Shown here in pieces: positions 5,540 through 26,193 of a stretch of 32,675 nt of DNA. The DNA lies in the sequence record NC_028896.1. One strand, written 5' to 3'. This DNA comes from Escherichia phage pro147. The position numbers and the translations under genes were made by a program. The notes under the pieces are model-generated. The model did not search any database. It saw nothing but the letters and a program-made list of their open reading frames with translations, and was not told the DNA's origin. Numbering within the stretch: the stretch's first letter is position 1; the number at the start of each line of letters is the position of its first letter.

Positions 5540-6730
5540 TTAATTGCTTTTAACCGAAGTGACCAGATTTGCCAGGTATTTATCGGTAATACGCTGGCGC
5601 AGGGTCAGGTTTTCGAGAGGAGGCACCGGGGTATAGTCATAGTCGATATACAGTTTTCCGGCCTTGAGGGTTTCCGCATCGTTGGATTCTTCGCTGAACC
5701 AGCAGGTCGCATCCACGATATAGCCGTTTGTTTTCAGCTCACGGAATTTGGCATTGATGCCGTCAACGATGTCGCGAATCAGCGTTGCGGTGATGGGCTT
5801 GTCCACCGCCCACATATGCGCCTCAGCCATCGTGTCGGCCAGCACCTGCGCGGTGCGGGTGTAGTTTTCAAAGAGGAACAGCGGGTCATCAGAGCAGGTA
5901 CGGTTACCCCAGAATCGGAAACCGTCGCGGCGAATCAGCGTAGTGACGCCTGACTCGTTAAGCAGGTCAGCATCGGTGCCGGACTCCTGCAAATCCCAGA
6001 ATACAGATGCGCTGATGCCGGTAACACCGTTTACCCCGACGTTGGACAGCGTTTTATGCCAGCCCTGCTCCTGGTCGATTTTAGCGCGCAGACCCAGCGC
6101 ACGGGCGGTGGCATACGCGGTGGCGGTGGTACTGTTGACCGTATCCCATGCGAGGAAATCCGGCCAGATGACCATCAGCTCACGCTGGCTGAAATTCTGG
6201 CGGTAGGCTTTCACCTCGGAAATGGTTTTACAGCCCCATGCGCTGATATACCCGAAAGCGCGCAACTTCTGACACACTGATGCCAGTGCAACTGCCACCT
6301 CTTTGGTGTCCAGTCCCGGTACGCCGAGAATACGCGGTTTAACACCGGTTACCGACTCCGCCGCCAGCAGGGCTTTCAGTCCGGTGTACTGACCGTTTTC
6401 GTCGGTGGTGCCGATGATATTGGAAACGGTCTGCGCGAGTTTCGTTTCCTCGTCGTCGCCGGTGCCGTCTTCCACACGCACAACAACGGTGACCGGTTTT
6501 GACTGGTCGGCGATGGCCTGCAACGCTGCCGCCAGCGTGCCTTTTTTACCGGCCTTTGCAATTGCGCTCTGCACATTGGTAATCAGCACCGGTTTATTGA
6601 GGGGGAAGATTTCCGCATCCGCATCGCTGGCCGTGCAGACCAAGCCGACAATGGCAGTGGATACGGTGGAAATGACGCGGGTGCCGTCGTTAATCTCCAG
6701 CACCTGCACGCCGTGATGATAGTCACTCAT
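5540..6730 (-). CDS. FI: Contractile tail sheath protein FI, 396 aa
   Basis: Translation from MSDYHHGVQVLEI... matches P2 gpFI as recalled. The internal ATG at 6728-6730 is preceded by GGAG; the track ORF extends to 6751 with 7 extra residues. Confidence 0.9.
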   Translation of the reverse strand: MSDYHHGVQVLEINDGTRVISTVSTAIVGLVCTASDADAEIFPLNKPVLITNVQSAIAKAGKKGTLAAALQAIADQSKPVTVVVRVEDGTGDDEETKLAQTVSNIIGTTDENGQYTGLKALLAAESVTGVKPRILGVPGLDTKEVAVALASVCQKLRAFGYISAWGCKTISEVKAYRQNFSQRELMVIWPDFLAWDTVNSTTATAYATARALGLRAKIDQEQGWHKTLSNVGVNGVTGISASVFWDLQESGTDADLLNESGVTTLIRRDGFRFWGNRTCSDDPLFLFENYTRTAQVLADTMAEAHMWAVDKPITATLIRDIVDGINAKFRELKTNGYIVDATCWFSEESNDAETLKAGKLYIDYDYTPVPPLENLTLRQRITDKYLANLVTSVKSN

Positions 6731-6834
6731 CCGTTTAACTCCGTGGTTCATGGGTGCAACTATTTTCTGTTGTGCAGAGCATGAGACGCTATTTGACCTG
6801 GCTGGTCAGTGGATGAAACAACAGATAAAGAAAA

Positions 6835-6853
6835 GGCGGGCAATCCGCCCGCC
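6835..6853. terminator. GC-rich hairpin between the FI start and the cargo gene; likely terminator/insulator
   Basis: 7-bp stem ggcgggc (6835-6841) / gcccgcc (6847-6853), loop aatcc; A-rich run to the left (T-run on the minus strand after the stem). Confidence 0.5.
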
Positions 6854-6989
6854 TGTCCTGATTTGAACTTACTCATTTTCCGACTGACAATTTACATAGC
6901 CAAAACACTATCATTTCCCTGACGTTAAGTTGTATCTTTGATAGGATTAAAAAATGTATAGATAGCTTATACTACTGAGGGAACAAAAA

Positions 6990-7799
6990 ATGACGCAAAT
7001 TAGTGAACGATGGAAGCACAACGGCATTACTAAAGGTTATTGCAATATTTGTGGAAAATATGACCTCCTCACAAAAGATCATGTTCCTCCAAAGTGTGCC
7101 ATAACCTTAGGTCCTGTTCTTCAGAAAACAGTTAGCGAATTTTTTGGTGTTCAGGAACCAGTTAAACCATTAAATGCTAAAAACGGCTCTTATTTCAAAA
7201 CCATTTGCAGCCACTGTAACAATAAGGTGTTAGGTGGACTCGACGTTGCAATTGAAAATGTAGCAAAGTCCTTTAAAGAACAGTTGAGTCAATATATGAA
7301 TGGTATGAGTGTATTTCCATTCATTAGAATACCTTTTGATAGCATATCTTTCACTAAGGCTATGATTGGACACGTGCTATCGGCAACTTCAGTTGAAGAT
7401 TGTAAAAAAGAACCCGTAGATAGCCCCTTCTATACACCTTTAAAAGATTATGTTTTGGGTAAGAATCCAAGTTTTGAGGAGACTCATGATATTTACTACT
7501 GGTTTTACCCACACAGAATGCACATATCAGCTCAAAGTGTAGCATTTATGAACGAAGGACATGTAGCATTTATTTGTGCTTTACATTTTTTTCCTATCGG
7601 TTTTATTATCACAATTAAAAATGAAGGAATATACCCTGCACACTCAACAAAATTAGAGCTTAAAGATAAATTCCTTACATTTAACATGACATCTGTAAAT
7701 TATGAGTATACGACATTTCCATTTGTAAATCTTAAGGGAAACCAAATGTATGCTATAAGCAACGGCCATACATGTGTGAGTTATCCAATAATTAAGTGA
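6990..7799 (+). CDS. Hypothetical 269-aa protein with N-terminal HNH-nuclease-like motif, in the P2 Z/fun cargo position; candidate anti-phage / superinfection-exclusion protein
   Basis: AT-rich ORF on the strand opposite all flanking late genes; ATG at 6990 preceded by GAGGGA. Motif string CNICGK...KDHVPPK...N...CSHCNN resembles the CxxC / DH / N / CxxC signature of HNH endonucleases. The C-terminal ~180 aa were not recognised. Confidence 0.6.
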   Translation: MTQISERWKHNGITKGYCNICGKYDLLTKDHVPPKCAITLGPVLQKTVSEFFGVQEPVKPLNAKNGSYFKTICSHCNNKVLGGLDVAIENVAKSFKEQLSQYMNGMSVFPFIRIPFDSISFTKAMIGHVLSATSVEDCKKEPVDSPFYTPLKDYVLGKNPSFEETHDIYYWFYPHRMHISAQSVAFMNEGHVAFICALHFFPIGFIITIKNEGIYPAHSTKLELKDKFLTFNMTSVNYEYTTFPFVNLKGNQMYAISNGHTCVSYPIIK

Positions 7800-7853
7800 C
7801 TGCTAGATCATAAAATCGACGCAAGTTCACTTTCTACATATACCATCTATAAT

Positions 7854-7877
7854 GTCCGCTCTTGGCACAGAGCGGAC
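7854..7877. terminator. Hairpin between the convergent cargo gene and tail fiber assembly gene G
   Basis: Perfect 9-bp stem gtccgctct (7854-7862) / agagcggac (7869-7877), loop tggcac; sits in the 127-bp gap between two convergent stop codons. Confidence 0.55.
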
Positions 7878-7926
7878 TGTCAGATTAGGCTTTACTCTAT
7901 GCAATAGATATGTAAGCTCATACAAC

Positions 7927-8457
7927 TTATTGCGGCATTTCCGGCCATTCAGGATTTGCAGGATCCACACGGCTGACCAGAACGCTGTAGCGTTCCCATG
8001 CTTCCAGTCGTGTGCGCTCCTCGTCTGTTGCCATATTCAGCCTGACAGCGCGTTCCAGCGGCTGGATGACTGATTCAGCTTCGGAAAGCAATGCGGCCTT
8101 TTGTAATTCGGCCTGTTGTTGCTGTTCGTCTGCCGTATAAATCCGTTTAACTACAGCTCCATCCTTAAACATCCACTTACCGGAATCATCAGCGCGGCGG
8201 TTGGCTGTAATATCGGAAACCTCAACGACGCTAAAACCTTCAGGGTTAAGCGTGGAGGCATCTTTAGTGATGGCGACAATAATATTATTCTCGTCATAAA
8301 GAATTTTTATTGTGTCTTCCTGAAAGTTCTTTAATTCCTCGTACCAGTTTTTACCGTCTTCGGACCATAACCAGATAACATCAAAATTCTTTGTTAGCTG
8401 GTATTGTTCGACAGTTTTAGGGTTTCCAGACTTAATATTTTTTAAATGCTGCATCAT
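7927..8457 (-). CDS. G: Tail fiber assembly protein G, 176 aa
   Basis: 176-aa ORF immediately downstream of the tail fiber gene; position and length match P2 gpG. Confidence 0.85.
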
Positions 8458-10503
8458 TTACACCTGTGCGACGTTATACCATGTGCCATTGATGTATTTT
8501 TGTATTGGCCTGAATACTGCGGGGTCATCACCATCGACTTCACCGACAATACCAAGCCCGGTAATTACGTGCCCTGCTTTCTCATACATCACCCCTTTCT
8601 GCATGGTCTGGACAACACGTGTGCCAAGTCTGATATCTCTCACATAGCGGGAATCAAAGTTACCGTAATCCGAGGGATTAACACGCCCCGTAATATTTAT
8701 GGTCTTATTACTTTGAATGCTTCCGGAAACAAAGCGCATAACATGGACGTTATTAGCATAAACATCCAGATTACCATCGCCATTTTGTTTAAATCCGGTA
8801 TCGTTATCACCAAGAACAATAGAGTTCCCACCCAACGCGTTATTCGTGCCAAGTGCCAGCCCGCCATCAATCCTGGCACCATTACCAACAGACACAACTC
8901 CTGTTCTTAAGTTGATGCCGAATGGCCTTAATGGCCCAATATCTCCATTTTCACCCTCATTTTCTCGTGTAGGGATGATATACAGGTTTTCTTCAGAACG
9001 GCGAAAAATAGCCCCAAAAGATGAATTAAATATCCTCAGTGCATTGACTGTAGATATTTTTACTTCACTGCTGAAAAGGGCTTTAACAAGAACATACAGA
9101 GCATCCCATTTAAGATTCATCAGGTCTTTTGTTGTGGTGCTCTGGCGACTTCTCCATTTGAAATATTCATTGCCGTTGTCACCTGTTTCAAACCACATAT
9201 ATGAATCAGTATCGCTGTCGGCATCATTTTTAAATCCAATCTTTGCCCAGTCAGTATTTCGAATCCAGGCAAGGATTGAGTCGTTTTCAAAAGTAAGCCC
9301 ACCGGACAAGGTATCGCCATTCTTTTGCACCGCGTTCCTGGCCCTGTTTACCGTTTCCTGCAAACCGAGGTATTCGATAACGGCAGTAACGGTCGCTTTA
9401 GCCAGAATATCCCGTCCGACTTTTGTCAGGGTTGCCAGGCTGGCAACATCATTCCCCGTAAAATACGGAAACCTGTCTGCCGCAGTAGCAAGCCCCGCCA
9501 GCGCCGTCAAAGTGGCATCTTTCGGTTGCTTACCCGCAAGCGCATTAGTCATGGTGGTAGCAAAATTCGGGTCATTGCCCAGCGCCGCCGCCAGCTCGTT
9601 CAGCGTATTCAGTGCGTCAGGCGACGAGTCTACAAGGGCGGCAATCGCGGCCATAACGAAAGCCGTGTTTGCGATCTGAGTATTATTCGTTCCCTGTCGC
9701 GCAGTTGGCGTCGTTGGCGTTCCGGTCAGTGCAGGGCTGTTTAATGGCGCTTTCTTGTTCGTTTCATCCATTACCGTCTTAACGGCTTTTGGTGTTGCGG
9801 CGAGCGTCTCAGACATGCTGTTGGTCGCACTACTTAGCTGGACAAGACCTTTTCGCGCTGTGGTAGCGTCCTGTGCGGTATATTTCCCGTTAGCAAGGTC
9901 ATATGCGGCCTTAACCGCTTTCGGCGTTGCGGCCAGTGTTTCAGACGTGCTGTTGGTCGCATTGCTTAACTGAGTAAAACCTTTTGCGGTCAGCGAGGCG
10001 TCCGGGTGACGTCGTGACTGTTCATGCTCTGCAATTTTGTCATCAACGTAATCCTGCGTCGCCATCACCGTTGTGGTGTCAATGGTCAGCTCCACTGAGG
10101 CCACACTGCTGACGATGATGACCATGCGGCAGGTCTGCGAACGCCCTGAGCCTTCGGCAAGGGTAGGTTTATAACTTTCGGCCATGTTCGCCACGGCAAT
10201 TAACGTTCCCGCATCATCGTACAGGCCAAGCTCTCGCATCCAGAAACCGCCCACCTCCGGCGGAATAACCAGCTCTGCGATAATATAATTACTGTTTCGT
10301 TTGTCCTGGCTGATTTTGTTCAGCGCATGTCGCCAGACTTCGTGGATAAGCCCGGTCTGTCCGGCATCCGGGACAGGCAATTTACCACCGCCATCCCCGA
10401 CGGCCATCGTGGTAATGTTGACCTTCCGCCCTCCCGGCGCGGTTGCCGCTGCCAGCTTTGCTGCACCGGCAGTGGTGATAACGGTTTTGAATTTTGTGCT
10501 CAT
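8458..10503 (-). CDS. H: Tail fiber protein H, 681 aa
   Basis: 681-aa ORF after baseplate gene I; contains the duplicated ...SETLAATPKAVK... motif and a variable C-terminal half as expected for P2-type tail fibers. Confidence 0.9.
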   Translation of the reverse strand: MSTKFKTVITTAGAAKLAAATAPGGRKVNITTMAVGDGGGKLPVPDAGQTGLIHEVWRHALNKISQDKRNSNYIIAELVIPPEVGGFWMRELGLYDDAGTLIAVANMAESYKPTLAEGSGRSQTCRMVIIVSSVASVELTIDTTTVMATQDYVDDKIAEHEQSRRHPDASLTAKGFTQLSNATNSTSETLAATPKAVKAAYDLANGKYTAQDATTARKGLVQLSSATNSMSETLAATPKAVKTVMDETNKKAPLNSPALTGTPTTPTARQGTNNTQIANTAFVMAAIAALVDSSPDALNTLNELAAALGNDPNFATTMTNALAGKQPKDATLTALAGLATAADRFPYFTGNDVASLATLTKVGRDILAKATVTAVIEYLGLQETVNRARNAVQKNGDTLSGGLTFENDSILAWIRNTDWAKIGFKNDADSDTDSYMWFETGDNGNEYFKWRSRQSTTTKDLMNLKWDALYVLVKALFSSEVKISTVNALRIFNSSFGAIFRRSEENLYIIPTRENEGENGDIGPLRPFGINLRTGVVSVGNGARIDGGLALGTNNALGGNSIVLGDNDTGFKQNGDGNLDVYANNVHVMRFVSGSIQSNKTINITGRVNPSDYGNFDSRYVRDIRLGTRVVQTMQKGVMYEKAGHVITGLGIVGEVDGDDPAVFRPIQKYINGTWYNVAQV
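9778..9989. repeat. Imperfect tandem duplication (two ~80-bp units, period 132 bp) inside tail fiber gene H
   Basis: Unit at 9778-9857 (cttaacggcttttggtgttgcgg...) and unit at 9910-9989 (cttaaccgctttcggcgttgcgg...); they encode the repeated QLSxATNSxSETLAATPKAVK peptide. Confidence 0.7.
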
Positions 10504-22203: not shown

Positions 22204-22911
22204 CTATATATACTTCCTTTTTACTCTACTTAATTCTATCACTGATGAGGAGTGACAAAATGACAAATTAATAGTATCGATATAATCCAAAATTTGACTC
22301 TCAACCTCAATAAAAATATTTTTGGGCCCATTACTAATCGATATACCGATTTCATCCAAAACAGCCATCATTTTTCTCTGATGAGTTTTATATTTATAGT
22401 CTTTATTTTCCTCTGTAATATGTGCATTGGCTTCCTCAATAACACATTTGATTCTAGATATTATTTCTAGATAATCTCTCGAAACAGATATATCACCGCC
22501 TTGCGCTTCAGGGAACATAACCCTATACCATCTAAAAAAATTAACTTTCTCTGGATAGATGCTACTTCTTTTAGTTAACTCAGCACTTGCAAATTCTCTA
22601 AACATCGTCAGATGACTAGTGTAATTACTATTATTATTATTTTTAACTCCAGCGTTATATGTCATCAAAGCAATCATAACACCAAAAACGGTAACAAAAG
22701 TTGTTATAAGCCATCCAAACGCCTGAAAATACATTACTATACCAGATGTTTTTTCCGCAAAAAATTTTAAGCACTGGCTATCGAAGCATATATCACGCTC
22801 ATATAGCTTTTCATTCTGAATAGTTTCAAAAAGAGAAATTAGCGAAAAAATCAAAAAAAGAGCTGACGACACACCGACAATATATTTGAGAAGTCTAATA
22901 TTTGCATTCAT
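22204..22911 (-). CDS. Putative retron effector: 235-aa protein with two N-terminal transmembrane helices
   Basis: AT-rich ORF overlapping the 3' end of the upstream reverse-transcriptase gene by 4 nt. Hydrophobic segments YIVGVSSALFLIFSLISLF and VMYFQAFGWLITTFVTVFGVMIALMTY, followed by a ~140-aa soluble C-terminal domain. Confidence 0.7.
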   Translation of the reverse strand: MNANIRLLKYIVGVSSALFLIFSLISLFETIQNEKLYERDICFDSQCLKFFAEKTSGIVMYFQAFGWLITTFVTVFGVMIALMTYNAGVKNNNNSNYTSHLTMFREFASAELTKRSSIYPEKVNFFRWYRVMFPEAQGGDISVSRDYLEIISRIKCVIEEANAHITEENKDYKYKTHQRKMMAVLDEIGISISNGPKNIFIEVESQILDYIDTINLSFCHSSSVIELSRVKRKYI

Positions 22912-24182
22912 AATGGTTTTAAAGATGCCAATCTAGATTTAAAACACTCCAGTTTTTCTTTAAATGATTCAGAGCGAGTAAGAATAATCATCTTATATCT
23001 CGTCAAATCATATTTTCTTTTATACCAATGTTTATTTTGATTACCTTTCGAATACGACAACTCTAAACTTTTTATAGCTGCATCAATCACAGCAACATCT
23101 CTTTTAGATGGCATCGGTTTTATTGCCTGCAACTGTTTCTTGAATGATTCATATTTTTCATGCGCAACACGGCCAAGCTTATTCACTCTCCCCATACATC
23201 TATTGAATTCTTTTCTGTATGCAACACTTGTTTTTGTGTTATTTTTTGCCGCCAGTAATTTCAAATTATGTATAGATGCCCTGATTCTTTTGACTTCATC
23301 GGATGGTAGTCGAGGTGAGTCATAGTCAACTCTTAAACCATGTACTTTTATAGGTTCAGATGAACAGTGAAATATTTTAGTTTTGCGCTTATTTATCGGC
23401 AAGTCATGCTCAGAAAGCATCCTCTCTATATGGCTTTGCATTTGAGAAAAATCATAATTACTTATTTTAGATGACACGGTAATATCATCTACCAAACGCG
23501 TATAAACAAGTCCTTTCCTCTGCGCACGTCTTACCACATCCCCTTCAACAGCGAATAAACACAAAGTTGCTATATAGCTTGATGTTAAGGCCCCCTGTAC
23601 GACAAAATCATCCTTAGTACATATATCCACCAAGTATTCAAGAGCCTCATCCTTAATATGCAATATCTCCTCAAACACGCTCCTAACCAGATCTCTATGG
23701 ATATTATCGAAAAAATTACTTATATCCACCTTGAGAACTGTTTTTGCTCCACAATGAGCCTTTGCACATGAAACATAGTCACGTTTGACATTAGAATTTA
23801 AAACATCATTTTTACTGGGAACTGAACCAAACAAAAATGAAGGAAAAACAACCAATTCCTTAAAGATACGTTTATTAATTCTACTCTGTAATAATCTCAT
23901 TTTAGGATGCAGGGAGTAGACAATCCGTTTGCTTCCGTCAATTTTGGGAATTTCTTTTAGAGTATATTTCTCATCTAATGGTAATTCTGCAATAGCTTTA
24001 AGCTCTTCAACAGAAATCGATAAAGCCTTTGACAACTTTTCAAGTGTTGTGATAGGAGCATTGGATTTGCTGTATGGTTTAAATTTATCCATAAACATAC
24101 CATTCAAATTCAAAGTTACGTACGGTCTTCCCATACTCAAGGGTGGAACAGCAGAGATGCTTACATCAACAATTGTCAGCAA
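22908..24182 (-). CDS. Retron-type reverse transcriptase (start uncertain: TTG 24182, ATG 24134 or ATG 24098)
   Basis: Translation shows the RT motifs ...CAKAHCGAKTVLKVDISNFFDNI..., ...QGALTSSYIATLCL..., ...YTRLVDDITV... (YxDD box) and a VHGL motif resembling the retron VTG signature. AT-rich; the TTG at 24180-24182 is preceded by AGAGG. Confidence 0.8.
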   Translation of the reverse strand: MLTIVDVSISAVPPLSMGRPYVTLNLNGMFMDKFKPYSKSNAPITTLEKLSKALSISVEELKAIAELPLDEKYTLKEIPKIDGSKRIVYSLHPKMRLLQSRINKRIFKELVVFPSFLFGSVPSKNDVLNSNVKRDYVSCAKAHCGAKTVLKVDISNFFDNIHRDLVRSVFEEILHIKDEALEYLVDICTKDDFVVQGALTSSYIATLCLFAVEGDVVRRAQRKGLVYTRLVDDITVSSKISNYDFSQMQSHIERMLSEHDLPINKRKTKIFHCSSEPIKVHGLRVDYDSPRLPSDEVKRIRASIHNLKLLAAKNNTKTSVAYRKEFNRCMGRVNKLGRVAHEKYESFKKQLQAIKPMPSKRDVAVIDAAIKSLELSYSKGNQNKHWYKRKYDLTRYKMIILTRSESFKEKLECFKSRLASLKPL

Positions 24183-24423
24183 CAGCCTCTGCTATCTTTC
24201 GACCGTACGTAATGTCGTCGGCTACGGCACCATCGTAGTTGACGACGGTGGGGCCTCGCTGATAGGTCCATAGTGGACGCTTTTTTGTAAAAGCAAAAAC
24301 TGACAATTTAATGTTGTTGACTGCCGCATACCAAGCGAATCGCTGGTGCGCTAAGAATAATGCAACAAAAAAATAAGAATTTCAACCGGGTAACTGCAAG
24401 CCAGCGACATCGTTTAGCGCGCA
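24183..24423 (-). ncRNA. Candidate retron non-coding RNA (msr/msd) in the structured leader upstream of the RT gene
   Basis: GC-rich non-coding stretch between cos and the RT with a nested hairpin gtcgtc-gg-ctacg-gcaccat-cgtag-tt-gacgac (24214-24246) and a 12-nt inverted repeat ttacgtacggtc (24116-24127) / gaccgtacgtaa (24201-24212). Exact msr/msd boundaries could not be determined. Confidence 0.3.
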
Positions 24424-24442
24424 GTGCTTTCCCCGCCTCGCC
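24424..24442 (-). other. cos: Phage cos site: 19-nt cohesive-end sequence GGCGAGGCGGGGAAAGCAC (minus-strand sense)
   Basis: Plus strand 24424-24442 reads gtgctttccccgcctcgcc, the reverse complement of the P2 cohesive end as recalled; followed by ...ctgcgcgct as at the P2 left end. Adjacent GC hairpin ccgccc (24442-24447) / gggcgg (24456-24461) plus tttt. Confidence 0.75.
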
Positions 24443-24648
24443 CGCCCGCTTCATGGGGCGGTTTTAATGCAGTAGCATGACCACTCAACTAGCGCGCCAG
24501 TCCTGATGTCGCCAGGCAGTTATTGTTCTCTGACTTGCGTGCGCTTCGATGCAGAGTAATGCACTTCCTGAATTGCTCGCATTCGCATCGTTATCATGAT
24601 AGAAAACAGGTAGTTATTTGTGCGCAACTTAAGAAGAAATCACTAATT

Positions 24649-26193
24649 ATGAAAAAGATTTATGAATTAACTACTGGTAGAGCGCTTAAGTATTTTCTGC
24701 AGCATGATTCATACACTACTCTGGAGCTACCCAGTTATGTCGATTTTTCTTCCTTGCTTGAAGAAATCAACTCCGCGATAGATGAAGGTAAAATCAACTT
24801 CCAACCTGACTCCAAGTCATTGATGGGGAAGAATATAAATTACGAGGTTTTAGTCAGCAAAGATGGCTTATATAGCTGGCGACGAATAACACTAATTAAT
24901 CCTCTGTACTACGTGTATTTTTGTAAACTTATTACATCCCCTTCCAACTGGAAGGCTATAAAGAATAAATTTAGAGAGTTTGAGTCTAATGATCTTTTTT
25001 TATGCTCAAGTACCCCAGTGAGCAAAAAGAACACCTCAAACGTAGCTGCATCTGTTTTAAACTGGTGGGAAGATTTTGAACAAAAAAGTCTTTCATTGGC
25101 TCTTGAGTATGAGTTCATGTTCAGCACAGATATTTCAAACTTCTACCCTTCTATTTACACTCATAGCTTTGAATGGGTATTCATCTCAAAAGAAGAGGCC
25201 AAAAAGAAAGAAAATAACAATAACCCAGGACGATTGATTGACACTCATATCCAGATGATGATGAGTAATCAGACAAACGGAATACCATTGGGTAGTACGT
25301 TGATGGATACATTTGCCGAATTAATTTTAGGCGAAATTGATTTACAGCTAAGAAAAAAAACTGAAGAGCAAAAAATAACGGATTACAAAGTAGTTCGCTA
25401 CAGAGATGATTATCGAATATTTTCAAGCAGTAAAGATGATTTGGACAAAATCTCAAAGTGTTTGGTTGAGGTCTTAGGTGAGTTTGGGCTTGATTTAAAC
25501 TCAAGAAAAACAGAACTACATGACGACATCATTCTTCACTCTCTTAAATCAGCAAAAAAAGAATATATTATAGAAAGGTCGTTCAACTCCCTACAGAAAA
25601 TGTTGTATGCAATATATTTATTTTCTTTAAAACATCAAAACTCCAAAATTACAGTTAGATATTTAAATGATTTCTTGCGAAAATTATTTAGGAAGAAAAA
25701 GATCACAAATAGTGGGCATCAACTAGATGCAATGCTTGGAATTATTTCAAGCATCATGGCTAAAAACCCAACCACCTACCCAGTGGGAATGGCTATTTTC
25801 GCAAAACTCTTGACCTTCCTTTATGACGACGATGAACTCAAATTTGGCAAGTTACAACAACTTCATTGTAAACTAGGTAAACAACCAAATACTGAAATGT
25901 TAGATATTTGGTTTCAACGAGTTCAAGGGAAGATACACACACAATGGGAAGGCGATTACAAAACAGCCCTATGTCAACGCATAAATGATGAACTCAAGGG
26001 AAAAAAAACATTTACCATTGATGGCCTGTGGGATGTAGAGTGGATTCCGGGCTCAGCCAAAAGTAAAAACAAACAGAAAATACTATCAATTTTGAAAAAA
26101 ACAAAAATTGTGGATTTAGATGCATTCGAAGAAATGGATAATGATATTACACCAGAAGAAGTGAACTTATTCGACAAGGAACACAGCGCTTAA
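24649..26193 (+). CDS. Abi-P2-like (Abi/UG-class) reverse transcriptase, single-gene anti-phage system, 514 aa (alternative start ATG 24559)
   Basis: AT-rich ORF in the tin/old cargo position. RT motifs ...FSTDISNFYPSIYTH..., ...NGIPLGSTLMDTFAEL..., ...VVRYRDDYRIFS..., followed by a long C-terminal extension with no recognisable effector domain. No adjacent partner gene. Confidence 0.75.
   Translation: MKKIYELTTGRALKYFLQHDSYTTLELPSYVDFSSLLEEINSAIDEGKINFQPDSKSLMGKNINYEVLVSKDGLYSWRRITLINPLYYVYFCKLITSPSNWKAIKNKFREFESNDLFLCSSTPVSKKNTSNVAASVLNWWEDFEQKSLSLALEYEFMFSTDISNFYPSIYTHSFEWVFISKEEAKKKENNNNPGRLIDTHIQMMMSNQTNGIPLGSTLMDTFAELILGEIDLQLRKKTEEQKITDYKVVRYRDDYRIFSSSKDDLDKISKCLVEVLGEFGLDLNSRKTELHDDIILHSLKSAKKEYIIERSFNSLQKMLYAIYLFSLKHQNSKITVRYLNDFLRKLFRKKKITNSGHQLDAMLGIISSIMAKNPTTYPVGMAIFAKLLTFLYDDDELKFGKLQQLHCKLGKQPNTEMLDIWFQRVQGKIHTQWEGDYKTALCQRINDELKGKKTFTIDGLWDVEWIPGSAKSKNKQKILSILKKTKIVDLDAFEEMDNDITPEEVNLFDKEHSA

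Follow-up and report, generated by a model that had tools for sequence, protein, structure and literature searches.

The FI-G cargo slot of phage pro147

The genome of Escherichia phage pro147 (NC_028896.1), analysed here as a single stretch of 32,675 nucleotides (the window), is an almost complete P2-like prophage with ~96% identity to P2 over 83% of its first 25 kb. Between the genes for the tail sheath (FI) and tail fibre assembly (G) it carries a gene for a 269-amino-acid (aa) protein, placed antisense to both flanking late operons and with a GC fraction of 0.33-0.38 across the gene versus ~0.56 in the flanks. RefSeq has the identical coding sequence (CDS), whose product is named "hypothetical protein" (WP_033551300.1), and the start codon of this open reading frame (ORF) is backed by the N-terminal alignment to homologues. 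The features of the locus are as follows, in window coordinates.

5540-6730, minus strand: FI, tail sheath, the left flank of the cargo gene
6752-6902, minus strand: P2 backbone between FI and the cargo, from alignment to P2 and P2-EC records; bears late-promoter elements of pF by collinearity with P2
6829-6859, minus strand: P2 backbone hairpin (9-bp stem, 7 GC pairs and a T-run in the terminator scan; -20.1 kcal/mol, z -4.5 versus shuffles)
6903-7877, plus strand: portable cargo module ("moron") of ~970 bp and 35% GC, in which ~87 nt of upstream DNA precede the CDS and a hairpin follows it
6903-6913, unstranded: upstream junction AAACACTATCA, common to P2 backbones with other cargo and to lambdoid and plasmid copies
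6977-6982, plus strand: Shine-Dalgarno-like GAGGGA, 7 nt 5' of the ATG, read off the sequence and kept in close copies
6990-7799, plus strand: CDS of the 269-aa protein
7032-7301, plus strand: N-terminal nuclease-like domain (residues ~15-104), a CxxC...DHVPP...CxxCN zinc/His-Me finger core, then a long helix from the invariant D85
7302-7796, plus strand: C-terminal domain (residues ~105-269), mixed alpha/beta in the AlphaFold2 (AF2) model, fold unassigned
7854-7877, unstranded: downstream-junction hairpin (-17.5 to -18.3 kcal/mol, z -3.2 to -4.6 versus shuffles)
7878-7926, minus strand: P2 backbone downstream of gene G, from alignment to P2/P2-EC records
7927-8454, minus strand: G, tail fibre assembly, the right flank of the cargo gene

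A preliminary description of this DNA, made from its letters alone, had noticed an AT-rich plus-strand gene antisense between FI and G, had given it its own Shine-Dalgarno sequence and had assigned it to the Z/fun slot. These points agree with the ORF at 6990-7799 (35% GC, with FI and G on the minus strand), with the position of GAGGGA, and with the annotation of the P2 record, in which the slot between G and FI holds fun(Z) on the antisense strand. P2 Fun(Z) (NP_046777.1) thus shares slot and orientation with the 269-aa protein, and the same V-operon terminator and pF promoter region bound both cargos. According to the P2 record, fun(Z) is a non-essential lysogenic-conversion gene which, when cloned, blocks the growth of T5; its product is, however, 528 aa long, and BLASTP detected no sequence similarity between the two proteins (E 0.36). 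In the Z-region records of other P2-like phages the same slot is annotated only as "putative lysogenic conversion protein". In two such records (AJ512682 and AJ512685) the variable ORF of this locus is additionally flanked by long inverted repeats, annotated as "left" and "right".

Alignments with P2 and the Z-region records P2-EC53 and P2-EC67 indicate that the segments from 6752 to ~6913 and from ~7863 to 7926 are conserved whatever the cargo. The upstream hairpin is kept in P2, P2-EC53 and P2-EC67, which carry other cargo; its orientation is that of an intrinsic-terminator-like element on the minus strand, and by collinearity with P2 it lies just upstream of the activator site (~6799-6827) and transcription start (~6754-6756) of pF, both approximate positions transferred from P2. 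The downstream hairpin occupies the position at which P2 annotates a "putative rho-independent terminator for V operon", and probably ends the convergent cargo transcript as well as the V operon. Its distal arm TGGCACAGAGCGGAC (7863-7877) is P2 backbone, yet travels with the module. The two hairpins had been proposed to insulate the gene on either side. Both are real and fold far better than shuffles; however, because they are conserved in P2-like phages with other cargo or coincide with the P2 V-operon terminator, the alignments identify them as elements of the P2 backbone and not as private insulators of the cargo gene. No known RNA element was matched by Rfam in the window or the module.

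A portable module in several kinds of replicon

The module, with a GC fraction of 0.352 versus 0.507 for the whole window, is not confined to P2-like phages. Copies with 94-97.5% identity cover 6903-7877 in lambdoid prophages, 6903-7873 in IncFIB plasmids and 6903-7869 in a Kluyvera chromosome; on the left, all copies compared start at 6903. Both junctions, AAACACTATCA (6903-6913) and TGGCACAGAGCGGAC (7863-7877), are common to P2 backbones with other cargo and to the copies outside P2, and might serve as anchors for recombination. With its upstream DNA, gene and hairpin, the unit is a classical moron.

In the lambdoid prophages the module, in antisense orientation, has the O/LygF replication genes on one side and Ea22-type genes on the other; in the IncFIB plasmids inspected (NZ_KM023153.1 and CP042872.1) it is situated between IS26 and a truncated integrase. 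The protein is encoded at ~95% identity by 52 plasmids, and 44 of 56 matching plasmids were typed as conjugative. The IncFIB copies, ~95% identical, come from E. coli, Shigella, Klebsiella and Enterobacter; one stands beside the sul2 and aph resistance genes. Plasmid and lambdoid copies have 1,024 bp in common at 99.8%. Among 5,426 complete E. coli genomes the flanks match 1,141, of which 133 (~12%) carry at least 80% of the region. Of 50,697 deposited phage records a single one, itself unannotated, contains the gene, and this near-absence may explain why the gene has escaped study.

The N-terminal domain

The protein carries the motif C18-x2-C21-G, D30-H31-V-P-P and C73-S-H-C76-N77-N78 within a domain whose limits are our reading of the conserved residues, the secondary structure of the model and the split used for the domain alignments. 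In 217 diverse members C18, C21, D30, H31, P33, P34, C73, C76, N77 and D85 are 97-100% conserved: C73, C76 and N77 are present in all 217, H31 in 216, C18 and C21 in 215 each and D30 in 211. The AF2 model (pLDDT 86, pTM 0.88) places the motif residues on a hairpin followed by a strand and a helix. D30-H31 terminates the strand spanning residues 24-32, corresponding to the (D/E)H at the end of the first strand of HNH nucleases, and N77, which follows C73-x2-C76 and falls in the helix of residues 74-81, occupies the place of their metal-binding Asn. Two CxxC pairs flank the core, which at the level of the motif matches the structural zinc site of these enzymes.

Profile comparisons point in the same direction. 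HNH_5 is matched at E<=1 by 48 of 53 diverse N-terminal domains (best 3.8e-6), HNH by 15 and Endonuclease_7 by 12; beyond HNH-type and His-Me finger families, only generic zinc ribbons were recurrently matched. Seven of ten distant full-length members match HNH_5 on both halves of the profile. Against the PDB, the domain profile has its best match in 4h9d, an HNH endonuclease to which both halves of the motif align collinearly (E=1). An hhalign comparison with a canonical Septu PtuB, a protein above the Pfam HNH threshold, puts CxxC, (D/E)H and CxxCN in register (E 0.003, probability 10.6%) and reveals an insertion of ~22 residues in the core of the family. A search of the domain profile against a set of 5.8 billion proteins yielded nothing but truncated members of the family; an annotated outgroup was not among them. 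Taken as sequence evidence, these results lead us to read the domain as a divergent His-Me finger of HNH_5-like type, putatively binding zinc, in which the DH...N catalytic set is intact, though formal profile and structure thresholds are not reached.

The C-terminal domain

The C-terminal domain shows its own set of invariant residues, namely G127-H128, W171, P202 and P244, and position 123 is always basic. A (R/K)-x3-G-H motif spanning residues 123-128 (7356-7373) lies in a predicted helix, with R in 175 and K in 42 of the 217 members, and G and H each in 216 of 217. Comparison of 25 diverse C-terminal domains with Pfam yielded no recurrent family, a search of the domain profile against the PDB returned nothing, and fold searches gave no significant match. 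The possibility of a HEPN RNase was considered, the (R/K)-x4-H arrangement fitting the Rx4-6H spacing of such enzymes, but was set aside as neither profile nor fold supports it.

Phyletic distribution of the family

The 269-aa protein matches phrog_21495, to which no function is assigned, over its full length (E 6e-195). A word-indexed search retrieved 87 homologues, mostly from Gammaproteobacteria, while an exhaustive profile search yielded 1,718 representatives at 50% identity, 321 of them at E<=1e-30; most of the 150 profile matches listed are essentially full-length, at ~270 aa. In a scan of one genome per species 106 relatives were detected. The range of these relatives spans Enterobacterales, Vibrionales, Pseudomonadales, Burkholderiales, Geobacteraceae, Nitrospirae, Cyanobacteria, Planctomycetota, Bacteroidota, Firmicutes and bacteria of the candidate phyla radiation (CPR). 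The preliminary description had called the protein an orphan, which this distribution contradicts; its recognition of an HNH-like N-terminus stands, given the invariant catalytic and zinc residues and the recurrence of HNH_5 as the Pfam match across the family, and the putative catalytic His whose conservation it had proposed as a check is H31, kept in all but one of the aligned members.

NCBIfam contains no match to the protein, and a PDB sequence search with all 269 residues returned nothing. The full-family profile retrieved a single PDB entry, a dethiobiotin synthetase, which we regard as a chance match. Public records call members of the family "chaperonin" or "metal-binding protein". The former name appears to be a propagated misannotation for which sequence analysis gives no backing, and both are misleading. 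Inspection of the protein sequence by eye revealed no apparent secretion signal or membrane segment.

Genomic contexts and autonomy

To characterise the surroundings of the family, 409 genes within three positions of a family gene were clustered from 78 genome loci. Neighbour families recur in at most four of the 78 loci; those that do are serine recombinases and a CBASS pair, the latter restricted to a single prophage group. The absence of a recurring neighbour, together with the occurrence of homologues as single-gene integron cassettes (see below), establishes the autonomy of the gene, whose product presumably needs no partner protein. In four related loci, from Citrobacter, Raoultella, Tenebrionibacter and a metagenome bin, the family gene is followed directly by a type I CBASS encoded on the other strand. 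This system is complete, with a cyclase (2e-116) and a 2TM effector (5e-71) recognised by PADLOC. Other neighbours include a Septu PtuA (2e-115) with its own canonical PtuB, beside a RES protein, and an AbiTii (1e-34) in an integrase island.

All nine homologue contexts picked for taxonomic spread only proved to be mobile elements or variable islands. They comprise the end of an inovirus prophage, next to a DUF2726 protein; a serine-recombinase island splitting an FKBP gene; a lambda-like Enterobacter prophage, in which the gene adjoins the terminase genes in antisense orientation; an integron array; in a P2/186-like prophage, the old/tin hotspot between portal and gpA; and several integrase or toxin islets. 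The array is that of Plesiomonas shigelloides (CP027852.1), a chromosomal, integron-like series of at least 18 cassettes in which a 128-nt repeat is present in 18 copies, one on either side of the gene. The same array also has cassettes for HEPN_AbiU2, a Shedu SduA_C protein, a PLD/NgoFVII-like nuclease, Fic and NUDIX. The Vibrio cholerae homologue was found on a 969-bp contig starting and ending in ...GGGCGTTA, which we read as VCR/attC ends, and its 90%-identity cluster includes seven Vibrio species and Shewanella. The Vibrio and Plesiomonas homologues hence have the organisation of an integron cassette, a single ORF between attC sites; the window copy does not. In 47 viral contigs the family was seen in the FI-G slot, in the Q-A slot, after gpD, beside the integrase, and in phages other than P2. 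Thus, members of the family occupy hotspots or mobile elements, including the fun(Z) and old/tin slots, and stand beside known defence systems, namely AbiU2, Shedu SduA_C, CBASS, Septu and AbiTii.

The Q-A (old/tin) hotspot of P2-like phages has been shown by experiment to hold defence systems (PMC9122126), the analysis of Rousset et al. 2022 covering the old/tin locus only. The Z/fun hotspot is described as one of mixed purpose with defence-like cargo (bioRxiv 10.1101/2024.10.15.618418), and a recent survey assigns 16% of P2 defence systems to a hotspot among the tail genes, downstream of gpL (bioRxiv 10.64898/2026.02.27.708500).

Functional prediction and its alternatives

The motif conservation, the autonomy and portability of the gene and its mobile-element and defence-island contexts are established by the above observations. 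On these grounds we consider it fairly probable that the protein is an autonomous, cytoplasmic, zinc-stabilised HNH_5-like nuclease with a family-specific C-terminal domain, which is expressed in lysogeny and guards the host and prophage against competing phages or other invading DNA. We infer its catalysis, expression in the lysogen, target and defence phenotype along the following lines. The module would be transcribed alone, antisense to the silent late operons, with its transcript ending at the hairpin shared with the V operon. To judge from their invariance and from the collinearity of the motif with HNH nucleases, the four cysteines are likely to hold a structural zinc, and D30, H31 and N77 to form a one-metal catalytic site cutting nucleic acid. 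The C-terminal domain might provide target recognition or infection sensing. Conceivably, the enzyme cuts only foreign, for example modified, DNA in the manner of a type IV restriction enzyme; another option would be that a phage trigger switches it on, resulting in abortive infection.

Several observations weigh against this prediction. At the level of the domain, the query scores only 12.5 bits against Pfam HNH_5 (PF14279) over its full length and 16.4 bits with the N-terminal domain alone, below the gathering score of 27.5; the P34-C73 spacing, 29-56 residues across the family with a median of 39, is unusual and reflects an insertion splitting the core, which AF2 models at low confidence; and conservation of the middle Asn in the classical H-N-H triad reaches only 53%. 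PADLOC-DB 2.0.0 gave no match to the query and three single chance-level matches among 42 diverse members, and the searched literature and supplements contained no phenotype for any family member. The neighbours tested with PADLOC were chosen by eye and hence do not form an unbiased sample, and cargo hotspots also house non-defence genes such as toxins and tail-fibre modules. Finally, a consensus scan of the plus strand upstream of the gene found no promoter. Footprinting of this upstream region recovered conserved A/T-rich boxes (TTGATA, TATAGA and TATACT), but their spacing is not workable for a promoter. Accordingly, the stand-alone transcription unit of the preliminary description holds as far as the lack of a conserved partner gene is concerned, but not in its signals, given that no promoter was assigned and the hairpins are not the gene's own. 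Its proposal of a defence or exclusion factor is similarly upheld by contexts typical of defence cargo, while the phenotype itself is an argument from guilt by association.

The peculiarities of the core would also suit a catalytically dead zinc-finger protein, such as a DNA-binding regulator or scaffold, that keeps only the HNH shape: the query falls short of the Pfam cutoff, conservation of the middle Asn is poor and a long insertion breaks up the core, and source names go no further than "metal-binding protein" or "chaperonin". Degenerate HNH domains, however, usually lose exactly the catalytic DH...N residues. Here even very distant members keep D30, H31 and N77 at 97-100%, an invariance hard to explain without catalysis, and we hold a dead finger to be highly improbable. 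A selfish, homing-type HNH endonuclease would cut empty sites into which the module is then copied by recombination, serving its own spread and not the host. Free-standing HNH homing endonucleases are common in phages (PMC5714182), and the sharp recurrent ends of the module, with 11-15-nt sequences common to occupied sites and other-cargo P2 backbones, as well as the inverted repeats annotated around the variable ORF in AJ512682 and AJ512685, would fit such an element. Against it stand the variety of insertion sites, which are unrelated and have no flank in common (four different slots in P2, the nin region of lambdoid phages, the inovirus end, attC-moved cassettes and IS26-bounded plasmid regions) and the wide spread of the family in bacterial chromosomes of many phyla. 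Furthermore, the gene is not located in or beside a conserved essential gene, intron or intein, and no known homing-endonuclease DNA-binding module was detected. Homing is in our estimate improbable.

A further alternative is an accessory role outside defence, be it in lysogenic conversion or host physiology, as a helper of DNA repair or recombination, or as an anti-defence or inter-element competition nuclease acting during transfer. The "putative lysogenic conversion protein" annotation of the slot in other P2-like phages, the mixed purpose ascribed to the Z/fun hotspot and the presence of the gene on conjugative plasmids are all compatible with this. Yet the plasmid copies sit in the accessory region, with IS26 and a truncated integrase as neighbours, and the annotation of both plasmids inspected shows no transfer or leading-region genes in the 6-7 kb to each side, so that a leading-region or anti-defence role of these copies draws no support from their annotated neighbours. 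Elsewhere the neighbours are repeatedly defence systems and not virulence or metabolic genes, and no secretion signal or membrane segment is apparent. Such a role is unlikely. An assistant of the terminase in DNA packaging, similar to the HNH protein of HK97 (gp74 type), was suggested by the homologue adjoining the terminase genes of the lambda-like Enterobacter prophage, but is effectively refuted by the distribution of the family, and we give it next to no weight. That copy is antisense to the terminase genes, the P2-slot gene is antisense in the tail region, and others occur in integrons, plasmids and non-phage islands; moreover, only ~12% of the region-matching E. coli genomes carry most of the region, hence the gene cannot be essential. 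Packaging HNH proteins are also small, and a protein of 269 aa with an extra domain is unlike them. All four alternatives are less consistent with the distribution than a defence nuclease.

Relationship to known systems

HNH_5 and HNH nucleases (PF14279, PF01844; group 1 of Jablonska et al. 2017, with McrA, GVE2 HNH, Gmet_0936/4h9d and the HNH domain of Cas9) display the same order of CxxC...(D/E)H...CxxC-N, align collinearly and have an equivalent layout of a zinc and a one-metal site. The present family differs from them in its core insertion of 29-56 residues, its weak middle Asn and the sub-threshold Pfam score of the query, as well as in the constant fusion of the domain to a 165-residue domain without known relative. 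Single-protein HNH restriction enzymes of the McrA type (type IV) are among the closest known systems. The Septu PtuB is likewise an HNH effector in phage defence whose motif residues align collinearly with the family, but the family lacks a conserved ATPase partner and has another C-terminal domain, and the PADLOC PtuB models match only one of 42 members (E 0.028). A Septu-like two-gene system can be ruled out, for the sole PtuA neighbour has its own PtuB.

Sirona and Nemetona, two validated systems from cassettes of the V. cholerae superintegron, are described by Darracq et al. as distant His-Me finger proteins, and the family too occurs in Vibrio and Plesiomonas cassettes. Sirona is recorded in 34 genera. 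Members of the family are recorded on ~16 V. cholerae contigs, and the V. cholerae reference genome is not among the 80 best genome matches to the family; both observations argue, indirectly, against identity with Sirona or Nemetona, and on a comparison made by description only we consider it unlikely that the family already bears a name. WP_033551300.1 is not mentioned in the searched literature, and the DefensePredictor supplements contain neither the accession nor signature peptides of the family. The preliminary description had spoken of an undescribed factor. This is in keeping with the lack of a match in PADLOC, NCBIfam, the PDB and the searched literature, but has to be tempered by the huge size of the family and by Sirona and Nemetona being known here through their descriptions.

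The family is thus a well-supported candidate for a new single-gene defence family, joining a known kind of effector (HNH) to a second domain of unassigned function. A more far-reaching and only tentative proposal is that the protein is the founding, as yet unnamed member of a pan-bacterial group of single-protein immune nucleases, in which a split HNH_5 core is combined with a sensor or specificity domain of new fold. The (R/K)-x3-G-H/W/P signature of the latter might mark a second active site or a ligand pocket, and the ~970-bp module would hop among P2-like phages, lambdoid phages, inoviruses, conjugative plasmids and integrons.

Specialists already anticipate uncharacterised defence genes in P2 hotspots. 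If the prediction is correct, the present one would constitute a compact, one-gene system of 269 aa with a broad reach of at least 1,718 clusters, from Enterobacteria to Cyanobacteria, Firmicutes and CPR bacteria. Being carried by 133 of the 5,426 complete E. coli genomes, and by conjugative plasmids from clinical Enterobacteriaceae, it would bear on predicting the failure of phage therapy, and sensing by the C-terminal domain could reveal a new way in which a nuclease without methyltransferase or partner ATPase discriminates foreign from self. Work on the turnover of P2 and P4 defence systems raises the question of cargo swapping (bioRxiv 10.64898/2026.02.27.708500). The module, with the same ends in four kinds of replicon, offers a clean natural case of such swapping between phage hotspots.

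Other features of the prophage

The Q-A hotspot of the same prophage (window positions 22204-26193) holds two known reverse-transcriptase defence systems, with the following genes.

22204-22911, minus strand: type IV retron 2TM protein (E 5e-85)
22908-24182, minus strand: type IV retron reverse transcriptase (E 1.4e-176)
24523-26193, plus strand: AbiP2 (E 4.7e-160)

No Rfam family corresponding to a retron non-coding RNA was matched in the window.

Next to the cargo slot, the GC fraction dips to 0.40-0.45 over G and the C-terminal part of the tail fibre gene H (window positions ~8000-9400) versus ~0.55 elsewhere, and in comparison with a related viral contig G shows only 77% identity, as against 99% for FI. 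Given these differences, the host-range module adjoining the cargo slot looks mosaic.

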